Assembly: GCF_000021865.1 (NCBI RefSeq)
Contig: NC_014034.1
Coordinates: 2,250,001-2,282,000, forward strand
Direction: 5' to 3'
From: Rhodobacter capsulatus SB 1003
GTDB lineage: Bacteria; Pseudomonadota; Alphaproteobacteria; Rhodobacterales; Rhodobacteraceae
DNA: 32,000 bases
In this document: positions 5,700 through 12,749 of the stretch, in pieces
Numbering within the stretch: the stretch's first letter is position 1
Layout: each line of letters opens with the position of its first letter
Notes under the pieces: generated by a model
The model's database searches: none
What the model was told of the DNA's origin: nothing
What the model saw: only the letters and a program-made list of their open reading frames with translations
Translations under genes and position numbers: made by a program

Positions 5700-5745
5700 G
5701 GAGGAGGATCAGAAAAGGCCCCAGTGGGGCGTTTTCCCGACGACA
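5700..5745 (-). repeat. Hairpin mini-insertion, family C (TCGTCGGG - stem-loop - CTGATCCTCCTC)
   Basis: The stem is GAAAAGGCCCC-AGT-GGGGCGTTTTC (5712-5736). The reverse complement shares both flanks with the copy at 10040-10083. It interrupts OrfB between AMIED and PSFGYRTVAWLLG. Confidence 0.7.
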
Positions 5746-5790
5746 CCCTCGTTCGGCTACCGCACCGTGGCGTGGTTGCTCGGGTGCAAC

Positions 5791-5833
5791 AGTGAGGCCC
5801 CGAACGCCATTGGTCCGAGTGAGCGGGCCGAAC
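5791..5833 (+). repeat. Hairpin mini-insertion, family A (core CGCCATTGGTYCRAG)
   Basis: AGTGAG-GCCCC-GAA-CGCCATTGGTCCGAG-TGAGC-GGGCC-GAAC. It sits at the frame break between AWLLGCN and TVQRIFQIKGW. Confidence 0.75.
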
Positions 5834-6353
5834 GACGGTGCAGCGGATCTTTCAGATCAAGGGCTGGCAGGTGCGCAAGCGCGCCATCGGCATGCGGCCG
5901 CGGATCGAGGCGGTGCCTTCGGTCGCCACCGCACCGAACGAGCGCTGGTCGACGGATCAGGCGCGGGTCTGGACCGGCAAGGACGGCTGGGCGTCGCTCG
6001 CCTTGGTGATCGATTGCCACAGGCGCGAACTCCTGAGCTGGCACCTGTCGCGCTCCGGCAAGGCCACGACCGCCAGCGCCGCGCCTGAACATGCCCTGAT
6101 CCGCCGGTTCGGAACGCTTGGCCGGGTCAACCGGGCGTTCCTGCTGCGGTCTGACAATGGTCTGATTTTTACCAGTCGCCACTTCACGGCTCTGGTGCGC
6201 AGCTATGGCCTGAAACAGGAGTTCATCACCCCGCATTGCCCGCAACAAAACGGCATGGTGGAGCGCGTCATCCGGACGCTCAAGGCGCAATGCATTCACC
6301 GCCACCGCTTCGAGAGCATCCAGCACGCCAACCGCGTCATCGGCGACTGGATC

Positions 6354-6394
6354 GTTCGGCCGCTCTCTCGGACCCATGGCGATCGCGGCCTCAC
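6354..6394 (-). repeat. Hairpin mini-insertion, family A
   Basis: The reverse complement is GTGA-GGCCGC-GAT-CGCCATGGGTCCGAG-AGA-GCGGCC-GAAC. It sits at the frame break after VIGDWI in OrfB. Confidence 0.75.
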
Positions 6395-6651
6395 TCAACA
6401 ACCACCGCCGCCCTCATCAGGCCCTTGCCGGGCGACGCCTGTCGAGGCATTCAGATTAGCGGCTTAACTTGAGCAGATTCAGATGGGGCAATACACGCTC
6501 GGCATGTTGCCCGCCACGGCCCGGTGCTTAGGTGAAGGCCACCCCAGGCGGCGCCGTGCCGCCCCAAGGGCGGTCGTCGCGGGCCAGCGCCCAGAAGTAT
6601 CCGGTTTTGGTTTTCCTGGCCCCCGGATCGAGCACCGGGGCACGCGTGTTC

Positions 6652-6695
6652 TTCGGGGCTTACGCGGCCCCATCAGGGCCACGGTCCCCTCGAAC
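6652..6695 (+). repeat. Hairpin mini-insertion, family B (TCGGGGCTTACGCGGCCCC...)
   Basis: TTCGGGGCTTACGCGGCCCCATCAGGGCCACGGTCCCCTCGAAC. It sits at the frame break after ...STKLFM in TnpC. Confidence 0.7.
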
Positions 6696-6973
6696 TCCAT
6701 GAAGAGCTTGGTTGACCGCTTCAGATCGGCAATCAACGCGTCAAACACCGGCCGGAGTTCAAAGGCAGCCCGGCCGACCCAATCGGCCAGTGTGGAGCGG
6801 TCGAGATCGATGTCCTGCCGGGCGTAGATCTGCGCCTGGCGATACAATGGCAGGTGATCGGCGTATTTCGAGACCAGCACATGGGCAACCAGGGCCTCAC
6901 TTGGCAGGCCCCCCGGGATCAGCCGATCCGGGGCGGGCGCCTGCACCACGCCATCGGTGCAGGACCGGCAGGC

Positions 6974-7014
6974 GTTCGGGCCCTCCTTCGAACCAATGGC
7001 AGTCAGGCCCTCAC
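6974..7014 (-). repeat. Hairpin mini-insertion, family A
   Basis: The reverse complement is GTGA-GGGCC-TGACT-GCCATTGGTTCGAAG-GA-GGGCCC-GAAC. Removing it restores RRPK(Y)ACRSC in TnpC. Confidence 0.8.
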
Positions 7015-7100
7015 TTGGGCCGACGCGTGACGAGGACGCGGAACTGCGCGAGAATGATGTCGAGCCGTTCCGAGACATCTTCGCCGATGCGATGCAGAGC

Positions 7101-10770: not shown

Positions 10771-10811
10771 CCTCGCCATTGGGCTTGAACCAATGGCGCC
10801 ACAATGGCTCG
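10771..10811 (-). repeat. Hairpin mini-insertion, family A (CCATTGG/CCAATGG subfamily)
   Basis: The reverse complement is CGA-GCCATTG-TGG-CGCCATTGGTTCAAG-CC-CAATGGC-GAGG. It lies just after ...LVADVMLD of OrfA, at the same site as the copy at 12481-12521. Confidence 0.8.
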
Positions 10812-11083
10812 ATCCAGCATCACATCCGCCACCAGGCGCTTCAGCTTCGCGTTCTCGGCCTCGAGCTGCTTGAGCCGATTGGCGTCCGAAAGGTCCATCC
10901 CGCCATACTTGGCCTTCAGCTTGTAGAACGTCGCAGGGCTCAAACCGTGCTTACGGCAAAGCTCGGAGGTCGGCAAACCGGCCTGCTGCTCTTTGATCAT
11001 CCCGATAATCTGTTCGTCGGGGCTTACGCGGCCCCATCAGGGGCCACGGTCCCCTCCTCATCGGTGAAACGGCTCTTTCGCAT
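10812..11083 (-). pseudogene. IS407-group OrfA (copy 1), interrupted after codon 7 and at its 3' end
   Basis: MRKSRFT / DEQIIGMIKEQQAGLPTSELCRKHGLSPATFYKLKAKYGGMDLSDANRLKQLEAENAKLKRLVADVMLD. Confidence 0.85.
11017..11060 (+). repeat. Hairpin mini-insertion, family B
   Basis: TCGGGGCTTACGCGGCCCCATCAGGGGCCACGGTCCCCTCCTCA. TCGG recurs at 11061-11064. Removing the insert restores ttcaccgacgaacag (FTDEQ). The copy in IS407 copy 2 lacks this insert. Confidence 0.85.
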
Positions 11084-11150
11084 TCGTCTGCTCCTTAAGG
11101 TTGGGCAGACTCTACATCAGATTGAGGGAACTTCCGGGAGGCAGGTCACA

Positions 11151-11596
11151 TCGAAAAGGAAATCCGCGGCCGTGACCCGGCCACGCGCGTGAAAATCCGG
11201 CAGAGGTTCTCCAGGCCGATCGTCGAGGCCCTGCGGCCTTGGCTCGAGGGCTGCCTGCAGCAGCTTTCCTCGACGAACGAACTGACGCGGCACATCCGAT
11301 ACGGTCTGAAACGTTGGGCGGGGCTGACCCGGTTCCTGGACGACGGTCGGCTCGAAATGGACACCAACGGCGTCGAAAACGCGATCCGTCCGATTCCGCT
11401 GACGAGGAAAAACGCGCTCTTTGCGGGCTCCGATGACGGGGCGAAAACCTGGGCCCGCATCGCCTCGCTGATCGGCACCTGCCGCCTCAATGGCATCAAC
11501 CCCGAGGCCTATATCGCCGCCACGCTCCGCAAGATCCTAGACCAGCACATGCAAAGCGATATCGCCGCGCTGATGCCCTGGAACTTCCGAGAATAG
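11151..11596 (+). pseudogene. IS66 TnpC, C-terminal fragment
   Basis: The sequence is as described for the copy B fragment. The 5' part is missing because the IS407 copy 1 end abuts at 11150. Confidence 0.8.
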
Positions 11597-11634
11597 TCAA
11601 GCCGCTAGGCAAAGGGTGATGAGCGGGCGCTTAC
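11151..11634 (+). mobile_element. IS66-family right-end fragment (tnpC 3' part plus terminal repeat), copy B
   Basis: The TnpC C-terminus is IEKEIRGRDPATRVKIRQRFSRPIVEALRPWLE...TNGVENAIRPIPLTRKNALFAGSDDGAKTWARIASLIGTCRLNGINPEAYI. It ends with the IS66-type terminus ...GGGCGCTTAC at 11634. Confidence 0.8.
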
Positions 11635-11813
11635 GAACAGATACACCGCGCCATTGTAGGGATCGTGGCCGAGCACGTTCTGCACGACCAGCGCGAGCCC
11701 CGCGTGTTCCTCGGGCTTACGCGGCCCCACCGGGGCCACGGTCCCTCGTCATTGCGGAAGTCCACCGGACGCGTCGCCAGATAGGCGCGGGTGACCCCGC
11801 CCGGCAGGATCAC
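11635..11813 (-). pseudogene. IS66 TnpB, N-terminal fragment with a family B insertion
   Basis: MILPGGVTRAYLATRPVDFRK / EHAGLALVVQNVLGHDPYNGAVYLFVS, then truncated. Confidence 0.75.
11711..11751 (+). repeat. Hairpin mini-insertion, family B
   Basis: TCGGGCTTACGCGGCCCCACCGGGGCCACGGTCCCTCGTCA. Removing exactly this segment restores gacttccgcaag|gaacacgcg (DFRKEHA). No target duplication is visible. Confidence 0.85.
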
Positions 11814-12271
11814 GACGATGTCTCCCGCAGCGCCGCAACCACCCGGCCAAGATGCGCCGCGTCGAAGCCGGTCGGCACAAGGATCCGCACCCCGACAATC
11901 TCCAGCTGCAAGCTGGTCTCGGGCCGATCACCCGGTACGGCGCCCCCGCTCACCACGATCGGCACAAGCCCGAGGGCATCATCCTCCGGCATCGGCAAAA
12001 GCCCCTCGCGCGCAGCCCGACGCCAGGCATGCAATTGCGGCGCCGAAACCCCATGACGCCGCGCCACGTCGGCCACCGTCACCCCGTCCCGAAAGGTCTC
12101 GAGCACCATTGCCGCCTTCACATGTTCGGGCCAGCGACGGCGACCGGTCGGCCCCGTCACGATGTCGATACGCCCGGCGTATCCAGGATCATCACTGTGA
12201 GAACTTACGTAAGTTTGTATGTCGCTATCCATCGACGCCTCCGTTGTTACGGGCGTCATCTCGGATGACAT
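11810..12271 (-). CDS. IS66 TnpA (Orf1)
   Basis: RRRWPEHVKAAMVLETFRDGVTVADVARRHGVSAPQLHAWRRAAREGLL...LVPIVV...LQLEIVGVRILVPTGFDAAHLGRVVAALR matches the canonical Orf1 layout. The stop overlaps the tnpB start. Confidence 0.7.
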   Translation of the reverse strand: MSSEMTPVTTEASMDSDIQTYVSSHSDDPGYAGRIDIVTGPTGRRRWPEHVKAAMVLETFRDGVTVADVARRHGVSAPQLHAWRRAAREGLLPMPEDDALGLVPIVVSGGAVPGDRPETSLQLEIVGVRILVPTGFDAAHLGRVVAALRETSS

Positions 12272-12335
12272 CGAGCCTCAAGCAACGAGGGCGATGGCCG
12301 GGCGCTTACGGATCTCCGGATTGTCGGGCGGGTGT

Positions 12336-12749
12336 TCACGCCGCACCGTCTTCGGATCGACACCGATCAGGACGCAGGCCCGGCGTTGAGAGATCGGATG
12401 CCCCTTCATCGCCCGCAGCACCGCGTCCCGCCGTTGCATCGGCGTCGTCAGGGCTTTCCCAAGAGATCCTTCGGCACGACCCTCGCCATTGGGCTTGAAC
12501 CAATGGCGCCACACTGGCTCGATCCAGCATCACATCCGCCACCAGGCGCTTCAGCTTGGCGTTCTCTTCCTCAAACTGCGTCAGCTGCTTGGCATCGGAC
12601 AAATCCATCCCACCATACTTGGCCTTCAGCTTGTAGAAGGTCGCGGGGCTGAGCCCATGCTTCCGGCAAAGCTCGGAAGTCGGCAAACCGGCCTCCTGCT
12701 CTTTGATCATCCCGATGATCTGCGCCTCGGTGAACCGTCTTTTCCTCAT
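12336..12749 (-). pseudogene. IS407-group OrfA (copy 2) with a family A insertion before the frameshift window; the orfB N-terminus follows in another frame
   Basis: MRKRRFTEAQIIGMIKEQEAGLPTSELCRKHGLSPATFYKLKAKYGGMDLSDAKQLTQFEEENAKLKRLVADVMLD / insertion / VVPKDLLGK. The OrfB frame then reads ALTTPMQRRDAVLRAMKGHPISQRRACVLIGVDPKTVRREHPPDNPEI. Confidence 0.8.
12481..12521 (-). repeat. Hairpin mini-insertion, family A (CCATTGG/CCAATGG subfamily)
   Basis: It differs from 10771-10811 at 1 of 41 positions and occupies the same position in OrfA. Confidence 0.8.

Follow-up and report, generated by a model that had tools for sequence, protein, structure and literature searches.

Small hairpin inserts within the insertion sequences of Rhodobacter capsulatus SB 1003 and within other mobile DNA of Rhodobacterales

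What places short hairpins inside the transposase genes of one chromosomal region and in none of the genes around them? The question is raised by Rhodobacter capsulatus SB 1003, in a window of 32,000 nt (the whole stretch of DNA that was analysed; assembly GCF_000021865.1, contig NC_014034.1, positions 2,250,001 to 2,282,000), where a cluster of insertion sequences (IS) carries 16 mini-inserts of about 40-50 nt, ten of a family A and three each of families B and C, and the other 24 kb carries none. The A core has 20 matches in the window against 4.97 expected, a number that no shuffle reached. All ten genuine A copies lie within 5485-12522; the other ten core matches lack the element ends and the stem, and nine of them fall outside the IS cluster. 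The B core matches three times and the C hairpin twice, always within the cluster, and a third, diverged C copy is found at 5700-5745. The probability that 16 randomly placed inserts would all land in 7.9 of the 32 kb is about 2e-10. A first-pass annotation, made from the letters alone, had described 14 copies, situated exactly at frame breaks and absent from the other ~24 kb. The inserts are present as described and A, B and C copies are indeed found in the IS cluster only, but we count 16. The position at a frame break does not apply to the copy at 10034-10081, found in the non-coding 3' stretch of an IS110 element whose open reading frame (ORF) is intact, and the one at 10449-10491 is in frame and stop-free. 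The description was essentially right, and the feature is real and statistically solid.

That the segments are insertions can be seen from uninterrupted relatives of the IS3, IS66, IS407-like and IS110 copies, which lack the insert at 13 of the 16 sites (those alignable to such relatives, the other three being in the second IS66 fragment and the sister IS407-like copy) and in which the aligned segments appear as clean gaps of 36-45 nt. For IS3, the inserts at 5700-5745, 5792-5833 and 6354-6394 are missing from both the Thioclava and the Actibacterium copy; the one at 5485-5526 is missing from Actibacterium only, and the Thioclava copy has a related A element at the matching place. Annotated-intact IS66 copies of Gemmobacter and Rhizobium lack all five inserts of that element. 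The inserts at 10449-10491, 10613-10660, 10770-10812 and 11012-11061 are absent from ISPfe1 and from the IS407-like copy of Gemmobacter, that at 12480-12522 is missing too, and three plasmid copies of IS110 are without 10034-10081. The sister IS407-like copy in the window, which had been said to lack the insert at 11012-11061, does so with a 44-nt gap in the alignment. Relative to the host ORF, six of the window's A copies are sense and four antisense, and in the public sample, where strand calls are noisy, the proportion is about 19 to 17. Both orientations, together with the absence from uninterrupted relatives, bear out the earlier claim of insertion at the DNA level, and the claim of dispersed repeat families agrees with the recurrence of the same insert types in public genomes and metagenomes.

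The junctions follow one pattern. In more than eight comparisons of filled and empty sites the flanks match for 8 to >40 nt and the central 4-5 nt are replaced by the outer bases of the element, so that GA-CAAC becomes GA-TC..GG (twice), GGAA becomes TC..GG, ATAT and AGAA become GT..AC and GCAC becomes AT..AT, and GGCCT is replaced by a C element at a 93%-identical IS110. No target-site duplication was seen in these comparisons, and there is no fixed target word among CAAC, CGAC, ACAT, GGAA, ATAT, AGAA and GCAC, which are weakly similar. The comparisons show that the elements enter as DNA and in both directions, duplicate nothing, cost the target 4-5 nt and add a net 37-44 nt. Three other descriptions of the junctions were tried and rejected. 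An insertion 3' of GTTC, as in IS200/IS605, fails because GTTC/GAAC belongs to the base of the element itself, GT-TC..GA-AC, and because the target loses bases; apparent target-site duplications (ATG..ATG in the AT type, TCNTC in B and C) are bases that are constant for each subtype and missing from empty sites; and outer stems derived from the target, by insertion into the loop of an existing hairpin, would need an inverted repeat that the empty sites do not have. Among near-identical copies we found no presence/absence polymorphism: three complete genomes agree over the island at 99.93% identity, the IS110 copies encoding an identical protein all have the C insert and none is empty, and pairs of near-identical loci differ by larger rearrangements only.

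The elements have a common anatomy. At the base of the hairpin a 2-nt pair gives way to tandem G.A/A.G mismatches (NN-GA...GA-NN), and further in a variable complementary stem surrounds a conserved core. In family A, whose core is CGCCAYYGGTYCRAG, the layout is NN-GA-(7-nt stem)-(2-4 nt)-CGCCAYYGGTYCRAG-(NGA)-(stem')-GA-NN in all ten window copies and in 58 public copies, and the outer NN pair with each other as AT..AT, TC..GG, GT..AC or GC..GC. The stem exists in 34 versions among 65 A copies (e.g. GCCATTG/CAATGGC, GCCATGG/CCATGGC, GGGCAT/ATGCCC and GGCGGGC/GCCCGCC), and its arms covary, with 6.09 of 7 positions paired compared to 5.21 (standard deviation 0.09) when the arms are re-dealt among copies. 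Because the sequence of the 5' arm recurs within the A core, the 3' arm has two possible partners, and ViennaRNA gives both folds. Family B, with the core GGCTTACGCGGCCCC..GGCCACGGTCCC, has the ends GTTC-NNN...N'N'N'-TCAC, where NNN and N'N'N' covary and the ends are the reverse complement of the A ends GT-GA...GA-AC. The core of family C is a CGTC-tagged AA..TT hairpin, and B and C have TCGTCGGG...CCTCCTC-type ends in common. The DNA folds of B and C reach z values of -1.6 to -4.3 against shuffles. With a terminal architecture that is common to all, the three sequence families of the first-pass annotation are better seen as three cores in one chassis. A resemblance of the loops to the tRNA T-arm (TTCAAGC / GGTTCGA) was considered and dropped, as it holds in a few copies only. 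Further families of hairpin mini-inserts exist besides A, B and C, for instance CCATTGGCCGGTATGCCATTGCCTGCAATCGCCGTAAGG and a CAGTCC-GGG-GGACTG hairpin (loci L069 and L128, insert after ..RRGSLTI; L027, 325-375 and 1265-1320; L069, after GIKV), and a AACGATCC-NNN-GGATCGTT hairpin occurs with several different outer stems.

The restriction to mobile DNA could be followed far beyond the window. An 18-nt pattern for A, run against one genome per species, gave at least 120 loci, about 30 of them chance matches in other phyla, and the B core gave at least 123 matches in metagenomes; both samples consist of exact core matches and their counts are of copies, not of events. The calling of flank ORFs is noisy in GC-rich DNA, and Pfam scans of these ORFs were used instead of an ORF-spanning "repair" scoring of the junctions, which was too noisy. 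Among the matches listed, the non-chance A loci are from Rhodobacterales and split into a GA-type (58) and a variant, T3 (36). For the 58 GA-type copies listed, Pfam matches of the 102 best flank ORFs cover 29 families, and 21 of the 25 families listed are transposase-related, among them HTH_Tnp_1, rve, DDE_Tnp_1_5, Transposase_mut, DDE_Tnp_1, zf-IS66/DDE_Tnp_IS66, Transposase_20/DEDD_Tnp_IS110, Y2_Tnp, Mu-transpos_C and TnpB_IS66; the remaining four are a periplasmic binding protein, two ParB domains and HTH_3. The flanks of B, among the matches listed, belong to rve (17), DDE_Tnp_1 (14), HTH_Tnp_1 (11), Transposase_mut (8), DDE_Tnp_IS66 (6), IstB (4), DDE_Tnp_1_4 (4) and DDE_3 (2), and outside IS to a phage tape-measure domain (6), DUF6930 (2) and one hydrolase. 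Among these matches, GA-type A and B reside almost exclusively in transposase ORFs of at least ten IS families, plus some phage genes. About ten IMG/VR contigs have a conserved phage gene into which B is inserted without loss of frame, ...SGVFSGAG-VRGAYAAPLGPRSPL-TYANVLHAG..., and in about eight a different phage gene contains an A copy of the GT..AC type. In nine marine contigs with nearly identical flanks, B also adjoins the 5' edge of, or lies directly upstream of, a phage or gene-transfer-agent-like tail tape-measure gene (L189, L190, L195, L196, L198, L207, L242, L243 and L249).

The T3 variant of A, GGGTCGCC...GGCGACGGGG, has Watson-Crick pairs in place of GA.AG, and the 69 flank ORFs of the 36 copies listed match 69 families, nearly all of them housekeeping; this fully paired variant is an ordinary intergenic repeat. 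It sits in a larger context, ..AAATATCCCGGGGGG-TCGCC..GGCGA-CGGGGCAGAGCCCCC.., which is conserved across genera (L011, L020, L021, L028, L035, L042, L050, L064, L075, L098, L120, L127, L129 and others) and looks like a composite intergenic repeat of Rhodobacterales. The confinement to transposon DNA that was first claimed for the window therefore holds well past it, the flanks of the 58 GA-type A and 123 B copies listed being almost only of transposase families; it is true of GA-type A and of B, and it has to be widened to phage genes and does not extend to T3. What we observe is a strong restriction to mobile genetic elements, mainly IS.

The carriers are by no means all dead. The IS407-like copy on Paracoccus ferrooxidans pFER4, with 83% flank identity, has the window's B insert and one of its C inserts at identical positions, is without the A at 10449 and has another C elsewhere, and locus L105 has three A inserts at other sites; in all, no fewer than six sites are occupied in differing combinations among related IS407-like copies. 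A single IS256 site holds the TC..GG type in three loci and the GT..AC type in a fourth, and the B copies at the IS407 orfA site come with three different outer parts. Of an IS5 that is 1270 nt long and has four inserts there are at least three copies with 99.8-100% identity, and it is present in 9 places on one Rhodobacter plasmid. Copies of this IS5 are found in L010 at 9841-11110, 11687-12955 and 18163-19432 (Rhodobacter sp. CZR27 plasmid NZ_CP023549.1), two of its four inserts are frame-shifting, and PLSDB lists no coding sequence for it. A contig of 1535 nt consists of a complete Roseinatronobacter IS3, undamaged but for its eight mini-inserts, and an IS256 ORF (L123) reads through three in-frame inserts. 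Many inserts are in frame with a net gain of 39 nt and many others shift the frame or bring a stop; in-frame and stop-free copies are those in IS256 L123, in a phage gene and at 10449 in the window.

Two IS5 copies have two inserts in common, both with in-frame stops, and their flanking coding positions differ by 26% with a ratio of nonsynonymous to synonymous change (dN/dS) of 0.10; of the common inserts, one is identical over 45/45 nt and the other over 35/39. In B-bearing IS407-like lineages, OrfA downstream of B has a dN/dS of 0.02-0.12 with saturated synonymous sites. Judged from these comparisons, insert-bearing IS lineages persist under strong purifying selection, with a dN/dS of 0.02-0.10. 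The dN/dS values could partly reflect selection that acted before independent insertions at a hot spot, and the nested pattern of common inserts argues for at least some selection after insertion. The elements have thus been carried over long periods by IS lineages that go on evolving and multiplying. The suggestion that they are the footprint of a process that disables transposons does not fit carriers that are under purifying selection, multiply as identical copies and in some cases are read through in frame, and phage genes are hit as well.

On a modest balance of probability we favour the view that the inserts form one superfamily of very small, non-coding, structure-defined, non-autonomous hairpin elements of about 41-50 nt that live in mobile DNA, are mobilised in trans and are enriched there by tolerance and by the spread of their carriers. 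As the elements encode nothing, a trans-acting enzyme must move them, and it probably does so by reading the single-stranded loop and the GA.AG base of the hairpin. Insertions outside mobile DNA would be purged and those in mobile DNA tolerated, the copies would be amplified and spread horizontally with their carriers, and some additional insertion bias toward mobile DNA may contribute. Several observations weigh against this reading. A candidate mobilising enzyme of the RAYT or IS200-IS605 kind, which the first-pass annotation had proposed to look for, is not among the families listed for the flanks; in the top-25 tables, which cover 293 flank ORFs, there is no Y1_Tnp or RAYT, although no exhaustive genome search was made. 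To our knowledge, a replacement of 4-5 target nt fits no characterised transposition chemistry. Hitch-hiking alone may not account for more than 30 different IS sites hit and almost no non-mobile site, and an active targeting step may perhaps be needed. The 45/45 nt identity of an insert between IS5 copies with saturated synonymous sites is more readily reconciled with recent re-insertion, conversion or strong selection on the element than with passive carriage, and several common inserts introduce a stop in frame or displace the reading frame, yet the ORFs that carry them look selected. Single-strand folding of family A is, moreover, only modestly better than in shuffles (z 0 to -2.8), and since these energies are unimpressive the case for structure rests on covariation.

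The most serious alternative is that confinement comes from insertion and not from survival, with a dedicated machinery, be it the enzyme of a hyperparasite or a host process directed against transposons, that inserts hairpins preferentially into IS and phage DNA, a step that might use transposition or replication intermediates or single-stranded DNA. We regard it as unlikely, if well worth keeping in mind. It would explain why 16 copies lie in 7.9 kb of IS DNA and none in 24 kb that includes a low-GC, probably dispensable segment of the island, why many sites in ten or more unrelated IS families are hit with almost no housekeeping flanks among the matches listed, why related IS407-like copies differ in the inserts they carry at six or more sites, and why identical IS256 and IS407 sites hold different element subtypes in different lineages. 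The amplification of carriers can mimic targeting when copies and not events are counted, as they are here, no candidate enzyme or guide was found, and the target tetranucleotides are only weakly similar; as a defence it would be a poor one, its targets being under purifying selection and multiplying. That such a machinery recognises mobile DNA as such, either as a parasite of parasites or as a way for the host to tag or attenuate its transposons, with the GA.AG hairpin and the conserved loop as the signal for the enzyme, is in our judgement also improbable.

We give rather little credence to the idea that the inserts are functional or removable modules, acting as attenuators, frameshift stimulators or protection against read-through, or being dealt with by excision, RNA processing, read-through of stops or ribosome hopping, so that transposases are still made. 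The carrier ORFs are intact but for the inserts, lineages with a common insert show a dN/dS of 0.02-0.10, the insert cores are far better kept than synonymous sites, many inserts add a net 39 nt in frame, an internal ATG follows the B site in OrfA, and there is a recurrence beside the A-AAA-AAG frameshift site of IS3-family members, all of which would suit such a role. A signal at the level of RNA or translation is argued against by the two orientations, which are about equally frequent; net lengths vary (37, 38, 39, 43 and 44 nt), each IS family aligned has uninterrupted, annotated-intact relatives, and the signal of purifying selection could predate independent insertions at hot spots. No ribozyme or intron matched in Rfam at E<=1, and a self-splicing intron or ribozyme was rejected for this reason and for the two orientations. 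It would be very improbable, finally, that we are dealing with ordinary REP-type intergenic repeats or random decay, with an enrichment that is only apparent since the window holds an old graveyard of IS. T3 is just such a repeat near housekeeping genes, and the IS copies of the window do also have 1-nt indels and truncations, but GA-type A and B are equally restricted to mobile DNA in two independent public samples, the contrast with T3 is stark in the same sample and by the same method, and the inserts are precise, conserved in sequence and common across genera.

The window lies in a chromosome of about 3.8 Mb, and CP198954.1, CM132222.1 and CP198942.1 carry the region at 99.93% identity. 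The IS cluster is inside an integrase-bounded island and consists of an IS110 fragment, an IS3 with a DUF1153 OrfA, an IS66, an IS407-like copy of the IS3 family that is interrupted by an IS110, fragments of IS66 and another IS407-like fragment (Table 1). The IS110 that splits the IS407-like copy has an intact transposase ORF at 8735-10018, and other lesions in the window's IS copies are 1-nt indels and truncations. The 16 copies are relics; the seven IS fragments that house them are decayed and belong to an old genomic island that is conserved among strains. The integrase is replaced by a different gene in one related strain (locus L134). Between 13000 and 16000 the GC content is 47-55%, and this low-GC segment holds the 766-aa NACHT/AAA_16 ORF, which is likely an NLR-type defence gene.

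Table 1. Mini-inserts and neighbouring features of the window, with strand and basis.
Feature	Position	Strand	Basis
ribF and threonine-aldolase-type gene	before integrase		ORFs, gene calls
Tyrosine integrase	3649-4746		ORFs, gene calls
AlpA-like ORF	4716-4985		ORFs, gene calls
Host IS cluster	4912..12830	.	ORFs, reference alignments, gene calls and Pfam families in identical strains
A (GT-GA...GA-AC type), OrfA/OrfB junction of IS3 (DUF1153-type)	5485..5526	+	absent in Actibacterium IS3
C (CGTC-tagged hairpin), IS3 OrfB	5700..5745	-	43-nt gap in both IS3 references; hairpin -7.4 kcal/mol; weak Rfam RF02604 match
A (GT..AC), sense, IS3 OrfB	5792..5833	+	38-nt gap in both references; AGAA replaced by GT..AC
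A (GT..AC), antisense, IS3 OrfB	6354..6394	-	37-nt gap in both references
B, IS66 tnpC (gene on - strand)	6648..6695	+	44-nt gap in Gemmobacter and Rhizobium IS66 copies
A (GT..AC), IS66 tnpC	6974..7014	-	37-nt gap in both IS66 references; target ATAT replaced
A (GC..GC), antisense, IS66 tnpC	7099..7139	+	~36-nt gap in both IS66 references
A (AT..AT), IS66 tnpB between WD and NG	7744..7786	-	38-nt gap in references
A (GC..GC), IS66 tnpB	7914..7953	+	~36-nt gap in references
C, non-coding 3' region of IS110-family element	10034..10081	+	absent in three IS110 relatives (one 93% identical); GGCCT replaced, net +43 nt; DNA fold z -3.3
A (TC..GG), antisense, in frame, stop-free, IS407-like OrfB	10449..10491	+	39-nt gap in three references incl. 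Paracoccus ferrooxidans copy; GGAA replaced
C-type hairpin, IS407-like OrfB	10613..10660	+	45-nt gap in ISPfe1 and Gemmobacter copy; DNA fold z -4.3
A (TC..GG), OrfA/OrfB junction of IS407-like copy	10770..10812	-	absent in ISPfe1, Gemmobacter and P. ferrooxidans copies
B after codon 7 of IS407-like orfA	11012..11061	+	44-nt gap vs ISPfe1, Gemmobacter copy and window sister copy
B, second IS66 tnpB fragment	11706..11752	+	core match; interrupts VDFRK-EHAGLA; without uninterrupted reference alignment
A (TC..GG), OrfA/OrfB junction of sister IS407-like copy	12480..12522	-	38-nt gap vs ISPfe1; CAAC replaced by TC..GG
NACHT/AAA_16 ORF, 766 aa	12916-15216	-	adjoins IS cluster, in island; then ordinary genes

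Several of these sites are occupied elsewhere: 6648-6695 in the metagenome loci L145 and L209, 7744-7786 in the Palleronia locus L012, 10449-10491 in L087 and L105, and 11012-11061 in many metagenome loci. The inserts that the window has in common with the P. ferrooxidans copy are those at 10613-10660 and 11012-11061, and the copy at 7914-7953 has the same 30-nt core as those at 10772 and 12482. In IS3-family members the OrfA/OrfB overlap repeatedly contains an A element shortly downstream of the A-AAA-AAG frameshift site, with the exact position differing from case to case (window 5485-5526, 10770-10812 and 12480-12522; L004 at about 525-565; L027 at 383-440; L051, L014/L037 and L089/L107), and this is either a tolerated spot or a frameshift-stimulating hairpin that has been recruited. 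The 37-nt insert in IS3 OrfB at 6354-6394 is followed, about 40 nt on, by a 1-nt deletion relative to both references (window 6395-6440), which brings the original frame back for the last 14 codons (...TPVEAFRLAA) and may be a coincidence. The IS110-family element has a non-coding 3' sequence of about 260 nt (window 10019-10280) that is highly conserved across genera, and in every copy found that encodes the identical protein the stop codon is followed by 16 nt and then by the C insert, within this conserved region; it is presumably the position where IS1111-type elements would encode their bridge RNA.

If the finding holds, there is an extra layer of nested selfish DNA in Rhodobacterales and relatives, and many transposases that pass there as pseudogenes may be intact genes with mini-inserts, which removal in silico repairs. 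It would also imply a new insertion chemistry, with no duplication and 4-5 nt replaced, and it would raise the question of how frame-broken IS stay under purifying selection, for which mobilisation in trans, internal starts, excision and recoding are candidates. Copies with GA mismatches in mobile DNA and fully paired copies in intergenic regions have a common core, and this gives a handle on what decides where such repeats can live.

In the literature searched we found no description of hairpin mini-inserts that are specific to IS, and the likeness to known systems is partial in each case. Translational bypass elements, such as that of T4 gene 60 and the "byps" of Magnusiomyces mitochondria, are GC-rich hairpin insertions of 27-55 nt in otherwise intact, selected ORFs. 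This is a resemblance only: the orientation of the present elements is not fixed, and at the IS5 and IS66 sites no consistent pairing of take-off with landing codons could be seen by eye. Palindrome-associated transposable elements (PATEs) and MITEs (transposable elements of the miniature inverted-repeat kind) are likewise non-autonomous, hairpin-bearing and mobilised in trans, and IS200/IS605 insertion is also free of target duplication. Both are larger, however, and MITEs have terminal inverted repeats and a target duplication; a MITE was rejected because there is no duplication, 4-5 nt are replaced and no parent IS with matching ends was seen. IS200/IS605 elements insert 3' of a fixed tetra- or pentanucleotide without loss of target, whereas here 4-5 nt are replaced and there is no fixed word, and a PATE of that type was rejected as the targets vary and target bases are lost.

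The closest known systems are REP/REPIN sequences, the CGTC-tagged REPs of Alphaproteobacteria and the palindromic elements of Rickettsia (RPEs). Like the repetitive extragenic palindromes (REPs) and REPINs that go with RAYT, our elements are short (20-40 nt in REPs), GC-rich, imperfect palindromes in many copies, with compensatory changes in their stems, non-autonomous and of a kind thought to move as single-stranded hairpins. REPs are, however, extragenic, have a GTAG tag, often form inverted pairs and flank a single RAYT gene, whereas GA-type elements are single copies inside transposase and phage genes with an NN-GA...GA-NN base, and no Y1/RAYT is among the flank-ORF families listed. The ends of family A are GTGA, ATGA or TCGA and not GTAG, family C and some B copies have CGTC or CCTC, and of our types only T3 is intergenic, GA-type A and B being inside transposase or phage ORFs.

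Like the CGTC-tagged REPs, family C and the outer part of B have (T)CGTC or CCTC at their start and then a stem beginning AA..TT, and those repeats too belong to Alphaproteobacteria and have no dedicated transposase (PMC3733652). They are described as mainly intergenic head-to-head dimers, with only "a few fortuitous associations" with transposase genes (Di Nocera et al. 2013, PMC3733652), unlike the elements here, which are single and almost only in mobile DNA. In Rfam, family C (window 5701-5750 and 10037-10077) weakly matches positions 23-73 of RF02604, the Brucella "sRNA CI153", at an E of about 0.4-0.9, and the matched part may be a dispersed CGTC-type repeat rather than a sequence specific to the small RNA. 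Rickettsia RPEs, or "protein-coding palindromes" (background in PMC3733652), are palindromic selfish DNA within ORFs, often in frame, tolerated as peptide and without classical transposon ends. Their length is about 100-150 nt and their hosts are the housekeeping genes of reduced genomes, whereas the elements described here are about 40-50 nt long, often break the frame and are housed by IS and phage genes of free-living Rhodobacterales, a largely undescribed kind of selfish DNA living within other selfish DNA.

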